54,334 bases of DNA, taken from IMG/VR virus record IMGVR_UViG_2541047874_000003. One strand, written 5' to 3'. Of the stretch, positions 6,001 through 9,000 are shown piece by piece. The position numbers were made by a program. Numbering within the stretch: position 1 is the first letter of the stretch; each line of letters starts with the position of its first letter. Source of the stretch: a virus (taxonomy: Duplodnaviria; Heunggongvirae; Uroviricota; Caudoviricetes).

Positions 6001-9000
6001 ATTTCGCTTTGTGAGCTGGAAATCAAAGTAATTTTCTTTTGGCGCGCACAGAAGTACGCCTATGTTTGCGAACTCTTCAGTCTCCGCATAAGGCGCATAG
6101 CGAACGATGCTATATAGGCATGGAGTTGTCATTCTATTGCGCTCCAAAATTCATCACAATCACCTTTGTCTAGCGTAGTGCAGACAAAAGGTAAAAACTC
6201 CTCATCTACTATCCACTCTTCTGGAATTTCGTCAAGGATAGCAGGAAGCTTGTGTAAACTGTTAACGACCCTCTGGCGGTACTCTACGCGATCCACTAAA
6301 TCATATTGCCATTTGCGGTTACCAGGGCCGTACACGTGCACAGAAAAATCTTCAGGTCCAGCATTCTGATCAAATGAGAGATTATGGTCAATCAGATAAT
6401 ACTTATCGTTACTGATGTCATAAAGGATGTTAACGTTTCCACCTTTGTCAGTAAGCGTTCTGTCTGCATTTAATATCCATTTATCAAAAACATAGATTAA
6501 TTTTTGCTGTTCGACTGGGATGATCGTTTCGTTTCTTGACTGCGTAAACGTTAACGCTATTGCACCGTCAATGAACAATGAAGCAAAGGCATATCCTGTA
6601 CAAATTTGTTGCTGCAGATCAGGTGAGTACTCTATAAGTTCCTCTGGCACAAATACGATTTTAAAGTCAGGTAAAGGAAGGCCGATATCATTAGCCAAAC
6701 ACGCCGAAATGAACTCAGCTAAGAGATTTTTCGGGGGCATTGATGGTTTTGACTTCAAAAGATACAACTGCCCATCATCACATTTGCAAAGAAATGGCTG
6801 AGTGGAACCTTCATTGATGCGACGTATTACCTCAACGACATTAGGTATTGCACTATTGCTGCTCGCTACGCACTCCATCACTAACCCTTATGTGATTCAA
6901 GTCTTCCATCTCATTACTCCGCATCTCAAAGAGCGGTTTAACACTGCGTGTTTAAAGAAAAACAACAGGCCTATTGCTGTAACTGTTTTTTAGCCTCACT
7001 TTAACCATGCTTCCTATATGTCTGAGGCATACTCCCAATAACTTTCCCAAAGATGAACACTCGGTTCATCTCGTCTTTCTCGATCGGATCCCACGGTGAG
7101 TAGCTCTTGTTATCAGAGATAACCAGCAGCTTATCCTTCATCATTTGCAGGCGCTTTACATGGGCAGTGTCGTCGTACAGAAACGCATAGATACCATCAC
7201 CGTCGAAAGATTTAACAGTGATATCAACGAACAGCAGATCACCTGGTTCGATCGTTCCTGACATGCTGTCACCGCGTACGTTAATGATGCGGATATTTTC
7301 TGCCTTCCTGCCATCGAACATGTGACGAGCATCGTCAAACGAGTACTCAACCGAGCGTAGGACTTCTACAAACTCACGGTTGATGACACCCGGCCCAGCA
7401 CTGACTTCTATATCAAGAACGTCAATCTTGAAGTATTTGGAATGGCTGACAGTTGATTGTATTGGTTGCACTGTACTGTCTGACATATTTCCAACGCCAG
7501 AAGATAACCATTCTGCGCGCACACCCAAAGCGTTCGCGATCTCCACGATTTTAGTTGTTTGATTAGCTTTCCCTGTTTCGATTTTCTGAATAGCAGCCTG
7601 GCTAACCCCGACCAAATCCCCAAGCGCCTTTTGTGTAAGGCCTCGCGCTAATCTGGCTTCTTTAAGTCTTTCTGAGAGTGTTGTTTTCATAGTCCAAATG
7701 TACAACCAAGGTTTTATTCCATCAAACGAAAATGGTTGTTGACTAAAAACAACCATAGTTTTAATCTTGATTCAAATTAACCACGGAGGTTGTTATGAAC
7801 CCAGCTATCAAAACAGCGATCAATATCGTTGGTTCACAAAAGAAACTGGGCGCTGCTTGCGAAGTTTCACAGCAGGCCGTCTATAAGTGGCTTCACAACA
7901 AAGCAAAGGTATCCCCTGAACATGTCGGCAGCATTGTTACGGCTACTGGTGGAGTAGTGAAGGCATACCAGATTCGCCCGGATCTTCCGAAGTTGTTTCC
8001 ACACACCGAAAAGAACGCAGCTTAAATTTCCATTTCACGCTCTTTAACAATAAGCAATCAACTTAACAGTCAATTCAAACTAAAGGAGTCAATTATGCAA
8101 CCACTTACATACCAACAGACTAGCGGATTTAGCCCGACTGCGGTGATAAATCGTTCTCAAACAAAACAGGTGCCAGGCCACGAAAAAATCCGTGATGCCG
8201 TCCGCGCCTGGTCGGCTGTAGATAATCAGGATGTCGTTGCCACACTCATTGTGAATGAGTATCGGGAGCAGGGCGGCGGCACCATCGATTTCCCTGATGA
8301 TGTCAGCCGTGCACGCCAGAAGCTGTTCCGCTTCCTCGATAACAAATTCGATTCTGAAAAATACCGAAATAACGTGCGTGAACTGACCCCGGCAATTCTG
8401 GCGGTACTACCGCTGGAATATCGCGGTTACCTGGTTGAGCAGGATAGCTTCATGGCTAGGTTGGCTGAAATGGAAAAGGAACTCAGTGAGGCAAAACAGG
8501 CTGTCATTCTCAACGCACCACGCCACCAGAAACTGAAGGAAATTAGTGAAGGTATTGTGTCGATGTTTCGTGTGGCCCCAGATCTGGCTGGTCCATTGAT
8601 GGCGATGGTTACTACCATGCTGGGGGCGATATGACAGGTTCAGAAATGGCGAAAGCCGGTCTGCTGGAACAGAACCGACTTTCAGGTGCAAATCGTAACA
8701 CACTCATTGCGGGAGGAATTATGGCAAACACTGCTGAGATATTCAATTTTCCAGTGCCGGATGCGGCACAAAAGGAGCCGCGCGTGGCAGATCTCGATGA
8801 TGGTTATACGCGCATTGCAAATGAGTTGCTGGAAGCTGTAATGCTGGCCGGATTAACACAGCACCAGCTTCTGGTCTTCCTGGCTGTCATGCGCAAAACA
8901 TATGGCTTTAATAAAAAACTGGATTGGGTGAGCAACGAGCAACTTTCCGAGTTGACCGGGATATTGCCGCACAAGTGTTCTGCTGCAAAAAGCGTTCTGG

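Follow-up and report, generated by a model that had tools for sequence, protein, structure and literature searches.

We analyzed a 54,334-nucleotide stretch of viral DNA (Caudoviricetes, IMG/VR record IMGVR_UViG_2541047874_000003), which we call the window, and focused on the open reading frame (ORF) of 179 amino acids that follows cro. Its sequence identifies this ORF as cII of a φ80-type immunity and early-right module, an already known gene with no sequence kinship to the CII of phage λ. We consider it probable that the gene encodes a DNA-binding activator and carries, inside its own first codons, the leftward establishment promoter (pRE) and operator at which that activator works. The gene family was known before, and the predicted intragenic composite of promoter and operator appears to be new here.

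Identity and fold of the cII product

The φ80 cII product aligned with the 179-amino-acid protein from end to end (residues 1-179 against 1-180) at 66% identity (E = 3e-93), and we counted this full-length identity as decisive for the assignment to the φ80 type. PHROG 163, "CII-like transcriptional activator", matched at E = 1.2e-66 over profile positions 1-168, and Pfam YdaT_toxin (PF06254, also DUF1019) matched residues 67-154 at E = 8.5e-30 (103.5 bits; cut-off, 21). Sixteen sequenced E. coli phages carry genes 95-99% identical to this one that are annotated cII, and related phage records call the ORF either "cII" or "CII-like transcriptional activator". Thousands of near-identical copies, together with full-length relatives at 40-74% identity across Enterobacteriaceae, indicate that the ORF is a real gene. 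The φ80 gene has been labelled cII in GenBank since 1988 (X13065), and the curated φ80 genome (JX871397) names it "CII decision making protein". In X13065 the φ80 gene has only 132 amino acids and its frame opens only at 3678, which points to a frameshift relative to the 2012 genome JX871397, where it has 180. Similarity to λ CII was not significant (pairwise BLASTP E = 0.36), Pfam Phage_CII did not match the protein, and NCBIfam had no model for it. In many sources the homologues go by the name "toxin YdaT domain-containing protein".

A preliminary description of this DNA had placed a 179-amino-acid ORF directly after cro, considered it unrelated to λ CII, and likened the two genes to the YdaS and YdaT of Rac-like prophages. 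The coordinates and the length proved exact, the lack of kinship to λ CII was borne out, and the likeness to the Rac pair held: cro belongs to PF15943 (E = 4e-17) and the ORF to PF06254, far over the cut-off, with 30% identity of the cro product to Rac YdaS and 35% identity of the ORF product to Rac YdaT over the DNA-binding domain. The label "non-CII" has to be given up in view of the φ80 match, which is clear homology to a characterised CII-type activator, of PHROG 163, and of solved structures named as a CII functional analog. The same description had left the role of the protein unclear, a position superseded by literature that makes YdaS and YdaT analogues of Cro and CII. As for its phrase "regulatory or toxin-like", the regulatory half stands, and the toxin half is very unlikely in view of the helix-turn-helix (HTH) fold and of published toxin-antitoxin tests that were negative.

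An AlphaFold (AF2) model derived from 30 family members had a predicted local distance difference test (pLDDT) value of 83.7. With this model as the query, Foldseek returned 8BT1 and 3C4R as the top matches (probability 1.00, TM score 0.68-0.70 on the target) and nothing else close; the entry title of 8BT1 is "YdaT transcription regulator, CII functional analog". At the sequence level the match to the solved YdaT structures was weak (E ~2e-3). In the model, residues 1-25 are predicted to be disordered and residues 29-113 form a five-helix HTH domain, POU-like with a long α2-α3 loop. The helices span 29-43, 45-58, 70-82, 88-104, 107-113 and 119-138, with an 11-residue loop at 58-70. The long helix 119-138, predicted with high confidence, is the equivalent of the YdaT tetramerisation helix α6, and by this analogy the protein is most likely tetrameric. 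Residues 143-175 make two extra helices with a hydrophobic tail. The recognition helix 70-82 carries R79 within a QKLFRF motif, conserved in at least 90% of the 30-31 aligned family members and aligned with the invariant recognition-helix arginine of the relatives (CP-933P Arg60, Rac R57), described as the only fully conserved residue of recognition helix α3 (PMC9986795). The rest of the conserved core consists of W39, G61, F78 next to R79, and an L97-P99-I101-P106 motif.

The family is small: a search of 1.8 billion representative proteins gave 111 clusters only, many of them fragments. It has two forms, a short one of ~140 amino acids (Rac, CP-933P) and a long one of ~180 amino acids (the window protein, φ80 CII). 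The long form adds ~28 N-terminal residues, predicted to be disordered, and two C-terminal helices with a conserved hydrophobic tail ending in GPLMAMVTTMLGAI.

What the family does is known from the short form. YdaS and YdaT of CP-933P are not a toxin-antitoxin pair but analogues of Cro and CII, with YdaT activating a cryptic PRE-like promoter; CP-933P YdaT was non-toxic, and the toxin-antitoxin idea was tested and rejected (PMC8630535). The crystal structure of YdaT revealed a POU-like HTH domain and a tetramer held by a four-helix bundle; where ydaS meets ydaT, the protein bound a YdaT box, TTGATT-N6-AATCAA (PMC9986795). For Rac YdaT the bound sequence is ATGATT-N6-AATCAA, which overlaps the ydaT start codon; the protein raises the activity of a reverse racR promoter by as much as 29-fold, and among host genes it targets rcsA; the published activated promoter, PracR4, lies ~190 bp from the footprinted box (PMC11879457). 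Over-expressed Rac YdaT leads to filamentation and death (PMC5700377, PMC11879457). A letter by Jobling argued for Rac that the "toxin" label reflects misread phage regulators, and pointed out that λ CII is likewise toxic when over-expressed, though it is no toxin (PMC5917428). Together these reports show that YdaS and YdaT are analogues of Cro and CII rather than a toxin-antitoxin pair (PMC8630535, PMC9986795, PMC11879457, PMC5917428).

A predicted establishment promoter inside the cII coding sequence

In long-form cII genes, the first ~66 coding nt carry position-specific nucleotide invariants. On the minus strand these form a fixed layout: a dyad, YTGAKN-N6-TATCAN, followed by exactly 20 variable nt, a TANNNT hexamer, 22 nt, and CAT, the complement of the start codon. 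The core of the dyad is TGA-N10-TCA, the geometry of the footprinted YdaT boxes. This composite was kept in 41-43 non-redundant diverged loci whose proteins share 40-74% identity; φ80, mEp237, CobraSix and KO-TP1 have it in full, and HK225 and HK639 carry a variant left half-site. From its sequence and orientation, we propose that the composite is the pRE of φ80-type phages, directed leftward through cro, antisense to it, and into cI.

The invariance in codons 8-22 is at the level of the DNA and not of the amino acids. T27, A28 and A23 of the coding sequence were the same in 41/41 loci, and the dyad positions xTG-ATA and xxT-CAx did not change regardless of the amino acid encoded. Codon 9 specifies six amino acids among the 41 loci, always as NNT, so that asparagine there is AAT in 20/20 cases (26% elsewhere in these genes) and serine is AGT in 12/12 (11% elsewhere). 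At codon 10, where four amino acids occur, the first base is always A; codon 17 is always NTG, and codon 21 again encodes six amino acids, all NNT. Isoleucine 18 is written with the rare ATA codon in 39/41 loci, against 11% elsewhere. Synonymous diversity reached its minimum in codons 1-10, at 0.65 bits compared with ~1.2-1.4 elsewhere.

When the window was scanned with a matrix built without the window sequence, the dyad was the top site in 54 kb, at 24 bits compared with a shuffle maximum of 19.1. The strict composite occurred twice in 54 kb, where 0.38 occurrences were expected. The centre of the dyad lies 29.5 bp upstream of the hexamer and hence at about -41.5 from the start expected near 8110, a position that would correspond to class II activator geometry with the promoter pointing toward cI. 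Another dyad match, CTGAAAGCGATTTATCAG at 16260-16277, scored 22 bits, above all 40 shuffles; we set it aside as probably due to chance because it lies inside an IS256-family transposase gene that is absent from PhiR5_1.

The boundary of the module falls at the same place. In 12 of 79 near-identical IMG/VR loci, sequence identity broke off exactly at the cII ATG (8095), with an unrelated cro and spacer on the other side, and the upstream DNA was heterogeneous in 50 diverged loci. With the breakpoint at the ATG, only intragenic sites travel with the gene. The CP-933P-type short subfamily behaves alike: its breakpoints also fall at the ydaT start codon, with 27 distinct upstream regions, and its box overlaps the ATG and also marks the mosaic boundary.

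Other candidate sites were considered for the operator. The window has no canonical YdaT box at the cro-cII junction. The cro-cII spacer does contain YdaT-like half-sites on the plus strand (AATCAA at 8056-8061, then N6, AGTCAA at 8068-8073, and AGTCAA at 8087-8092). We rejected these as the cognate site, since the same gene follows unrelated spacers lacking them in the 12 of 79 loci and in nearly all diverged loci; placed downstream of the predicted pRE start, they are at most auxiliary low-affinity sites. A TGGT-N7-TGGT direct repeat in codons 2-7 was dropped because its copies do not co-vary and the first copy is variable across loci.

These observations fit a simple scheme. The cII gene would be transcribed from pR after cro, and its HTH product would tetramerise through the long helix and bind a dyad of TTGAT-like half-sites. 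Early after infection, CII would then turn on the leftward establishment promoter, whose dyad, hexamer and start (~8110) would all lie inside the first 22 codons; the transcript, antisense to cro, would supply the first cI repressor and favor lysogeny. Activator and target would be inherited as a single mosaic unit. The data directly support the family membership, the fold, the gene position and the DNA-level conservation of the composite, and from these we infer that the protein forms tetramers and binds the dyad, that the promoter is active and that lysogeny is affected. An intragenic pRE would also account for the conserved disordered extension and for the module boundary at the ATG.

Several points weigh against this scheme. 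We found no experiment on the long-form protein, and binding, oligomeric state and activation are extrapolated from relatives 27-35% identical. The dyad fits the published box at only 8/12 specified positions, TAGTCT makes a weak hexamer, and a -35 could not be recognised. In CP-933P-type loci the box lacks a -10-like hexamer at any constant distance; this, together with the ~190-bp distance of the Rac promoter, means that class II geometry cannot be generalised from the characterised members, and we rejected the composite as a rule for short YdaTs for the same lack of a hexamer. Near int/xis (the place of λ pI) and Q (that of λ paQ), scans with the composite and the dyad found no comparable site, and no cIII homologue was seen, so that λ-like control of protein stability is not established. 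Neither in papers nor in annotations did we find a pRE defined for the long subfamily.

The footprinted box of Rac (L082, E. coli K-12 Rac, 2178-2195) is followed exactly 20 nt on by TATGAT (2157-2152, minus strand). This may mark a box-adjacent promoter, besides or in place of PracR4, or it may be a coincidence.

A candidate second operator and rival explanations

The window has a single perfect canonical YdaT box, TTGATTTGCGATAATCAA, which lies 5.1 kb away at the left edge of a conserved leader 5' of ninB, where it overlaps the -35 and spacer of a rightward promoter (Table 1). The phage 82 record X92588 annotates the -35 and -10 of this leader as putative signals. The half-sites were the same in all nine phages compared (from Escherichia, Citrobacter, Enterobacter and Klebsiella), unlike the six bases at the centre and all of the DNA upstream. 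The box occurred with a φ80-type cII in 22/22 annotated phage records, the exception to this count being a 2.3-kb phage 82 fragment whose cII lies outside the record, and the replication modules between cII and the box differed among the phages that have it. Among IMG/VR contigs with the box and at least 7 kb upstream, 26/35 encode a long YdaT-family cII; of the other nine, which lack such a gene, two or three carry a λ-type cII. φ80, HK225 and mEp237 lack the box. The link between box and cII is strong, not exclusive. Centred between -35 and -10, the box would lead to repression, and by linkage and sequence logic only it could be a functional counterpart of λ paQ.

Just 3' of this promoter is a conserved hairpin, CGGAG-N9-CTCCG (13291-13309), in a leader that runs to ninB at 13436. 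The Citrobacter version reads CCAGAG…CTCTGG, with apparently compensatory changes. X92588 labels the hairpin a "possible regulator-binding site", and a small ORF (orf33 in phage 82) comes next.

A more far-reaching reading, which we rate as somewhat less likely than not, is that the 28-residue N-terminal extension is conserved mainly as DNA, providing a complete class II pRE and thus one cassette for any cro/cI module, and that CII also acts at the ninB operator, repressing nin and Q or looping the intervening 5.1 kb. If true, the ninB-leader operator would be a non-homologous counterpart of λ paQ.

Could the protein instead be a toxin, restrained by Cro/YdaS or by cI in a toxin-antitoxin or toxin-repressor module? 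The Pfam names YdaT_toxin and YdaS_toxin, the wide use of "toxin YdaT" for homologues, and the filamentation and death caused by over-expressed Rac YdaT (PMC5700377, PMC11879457) all invite this interpretation, which we nevertheless regard as highly improbable. The protein has a DNA-binding HTH fold and no enzymatic or membrane-toxin features in the AF2 model and Foldseek search, and PADLOC left it unmatched. It occupies the canonical cro-cII-O-P slot in the complete lambdoid early operon of viable, plaque-forming phages, not a self-contained two-gene operon. The idea was rejected for CP-933P (PMC8630535) and argued against for Rac, and toxicity on over-expression is a property that λ CII has too without being a toxin (PMC5917428).

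Two further rivals were weighed. One makes the protein a DNA-binding regulator with another main role, either as a repressor or roadblock at the ninB-leader promoter that delays nin and Q, or at host genes, with the intragenic dyad being autoregulatory. The perfect box over a conserved rightward promoter, its invariant half-sites in the nine phages, its linkage to φ80-type cII (22/22 records, 26/35 contigs), the host target of Rac YdaT and the two DNA-binding faces of the YdaT tetramer speak for it; however, φ80, HK225 and mEp237 have the same CII and no box, nine contigs have the box without a YdaT-family cII, and the left half of the box is also simply a good -35 hexamer. The designation cII in φ80 (X13065, JX871397) implies a role in establishing lysogeny. 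We think such a main role unlikely, and a repressor role and an establishment role are not mutually exclusive. The other rival takes the invariants of codons 1-22 as a recombination "linker" at the module boundary, or as messenger RNA features for initiation of cII translation or for stability. The breakpoint coincides exactly with the ATG, and at such a point one would expect junction sequences to be conserved; the first 12 nt (ATGCA..CACTT) are conserved as well although they lie outside the proposed promoter, and synonymous diversity is lowered over codons 1-30 generally. Yet the invariants are position-specific and form no uniform block, the 20 nt between dyad and hexamer vary freely, and what is kept are the three most important -10 positions and a symmetric TGA/TCA with the spacing of a YdaT box. 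A linker needs neither dyad symmetry nor a rare ATA codon, and we hold this alternative to be doubtful. An activator with an intragenic establishment promoter is the explanation we retain.

Locus layout and comparison with known systems

ORF calls and profile searches showed that the window contains a lambdoid immunity and early-right region of the textbook kind (Table 1), 95-99% identical to sequenced E. coli phages, for example PhiR5_1, PhiR34_1, IdasGreatGrand, 4A7 and D2. The true start of cI is probably Met23 at 7690; the profile alignments begin at about residue 23. The cro product was also a sub-threshold match to Pfam P22_Cro. The cro-cII spacer is 69 bp long, with a strong Shine-Dalgarno sequence, AAAGGAG, 7 nt 5' of the cII ATG, and boxA motifs of the CGCTCTTTAACAA type recur in the spacers of some diverged loci.

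Table 1. Features of the immunity and early-right region of the window, including predicted regulatory sites.
Feature	Position	Strand	Basis
cI-type prophage repressor, HTH and S24 peptidase	7001-7756	-	Pfam Peptidase_S24 1.5e-18, HTH_3 6.5e-13; PHROG 4 and 6201
cro, YdaS-family HTH, 76 amino acids	7795-8025	+	Pfam YdaS_toxin PF15943 4.1e-17; PHROG 35
boxA-like CGCTCTTTAACAA in cro-cII spacer, nutR position	8038-8050	+	direct reading of the sequence
cII, φ80 type, long-form YdaT family, 179 amino acids	8095-8634	+	
Predicted -10 hexamer TAGTCT of pRE-like leftward promoter (family consensus TAYYNT)	8117-8122	-	
Predicted CII operator, dyad TTGAGAACGATTTATCAC	8143-8160 (codons 17-22)	-	conservation and matrix score
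oop/M3-position element, promoter-like TTGAAT-17-CATAAT with upstream TG	8746-8718, overlapping the probable O start codon (8721)	-	promoter scan
λ O-type initiator	listed 8631-9650, real start probably 8721		profile searches
λ P-type helicase loader, followed by ren	9647-10348		
Perfect canonical YdaT box TTGATTTGCGATAATCAA (13254-13271) over -35 and spacer of promoter TTGATT-17-CATAAT (-10 at 13277-13282)	13254-13282	+	

The promoter-like element at the oop/M3 position is followed by a stable hairpin on the minus strand (~8650-8684; -25.2 kcal/mol, z = -2.9 by RNA folding). φ80 and HK639 annotate an M3 or M3-like RNA in the same position; we considered the element as a homologue of the φ80 M3 RNA and rejected this, the sequences not being homologous. 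At gathering thresholds, Rfam had no match anywhere in the window.

Between kil (4590-4880) and the pL-proximal genes we found no N ORF and no cIII ORF. A 425-bp gap there (4881-5304) holds no ORF of at least 50 amino acids, and contains an arginine-rich mini-ORF of 31 amino acids with a TTG start (4905-5000). The boxA-like CGCTCTTTAACAA is perfect although no N ORF was seen. Next to cI, in the position of rexAB (5305-6881, minus strand), are genes for a HipA_2-family kinase (250 amino acids) and a DUF3037 protein (280 amino acids), a pair that matches the PADLOC candidate defence pair PDC-M66A/B (E ~1e-14 to 1e-16) and that PhiR5_1 annotates as HipA and "HipD". A moron-like insert (10718-12430) separates ren from the nin region and encodes an Arc-like regulator (11116-11463, minus strand) and an Ant-type anti-repressor (11681-12430, plus strand); a hypothetical protein of 118 amino acids (12892-13248) is encoded 3' of it. 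Directly 3' of Q (14911-15303) is an IS256/Mutator-family transposase gene (15432-16640, plus strand; Pfam 3e-119), a position that suggests an insertion sequence at the start of the late operon. PhiR5_1 lacks this element.

As a gene, the ORF is ordinary: many phages already have an annotated φ80-type cII, and structural and functional characterisation of the YdaT family dates from 2021-2025. "Toxin YdaT" and "toxin YdaS", as databases call them, are misleading names; annotation as CII and Cro analogues would be better. What the analysis adds is a testable location for the establishment promoter and operator of the long subfamily, a group very common among the prophages of Enterobacteriaceae. 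The prediction would account for regulator and target staying together through mosaic recombination, and it names a candidate operator for nin and Q.

The closest known system is φ80. Its CII (PHI80_49; PHROG 163), found also in mEp237, HK225, HK639 and many "PhiR" E. coli phages, has the same 179/180-amino-acid architecture, including the disordered N-terminus and the hydrophobic tail, and in φ80 as in the window cII comes after the cro analogue and before the replication genes, with an oop/M3-position element behind it. Since the module boundary is at the ATG, the two differ in their cro, cI and spacer. The replication genes are of the λ O/P type in the window and genes 15 and 14 in φ80; φ80 has no canonical ninB-leader box, and the sequence of its M3 RNA is not kept in the window.

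YdaT of CP-933P (8BT1; close homologue 3C4R) and of Rac (b1358) share with the window protein the Pfam family, the fold (TM ~0.7) and the recognition-helix arginine. In both prophages, as in the window, the gene follows a YdaS-type Cro. Their operator, which has TGA-N10-TCA symmetry, is placed at the 5' end of the gene or close to it, as is predicted for the window. Identity to the window protein is only 27-35%, however, and the short forms (~140 amino acids) have neither the 28-amino-acid N-terminal extension nor the two C-terminal helices. In the recognition helix, the triplet reads F-R-F in the window, H-R-W in Rac and F-R-W in CP-933P. The short-form box overlaps the start codon with no hexamer at a fixed distance, whereas the window dyad is in codons 17-22.

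λ CII, a tetrameric HTH-based protein of 97 amino acids, binds the direct repeat TTGC-N6-TTGC, and λ pRE with its CII site overlaps the 5' end of cII. In the window this repeat had two matches (24703 and 26701), both in late genes, against ~4 expected, and none near cII, int or Q. Unlike λ, the window yielded no cIII partner and no pI-like or paQ-like sites. The window gene nonetheless occupies the same genomic slot and would have the same role at a leftward promoter over its own 5' end; it is non-λ-CII by sequence and most likely CII by function.

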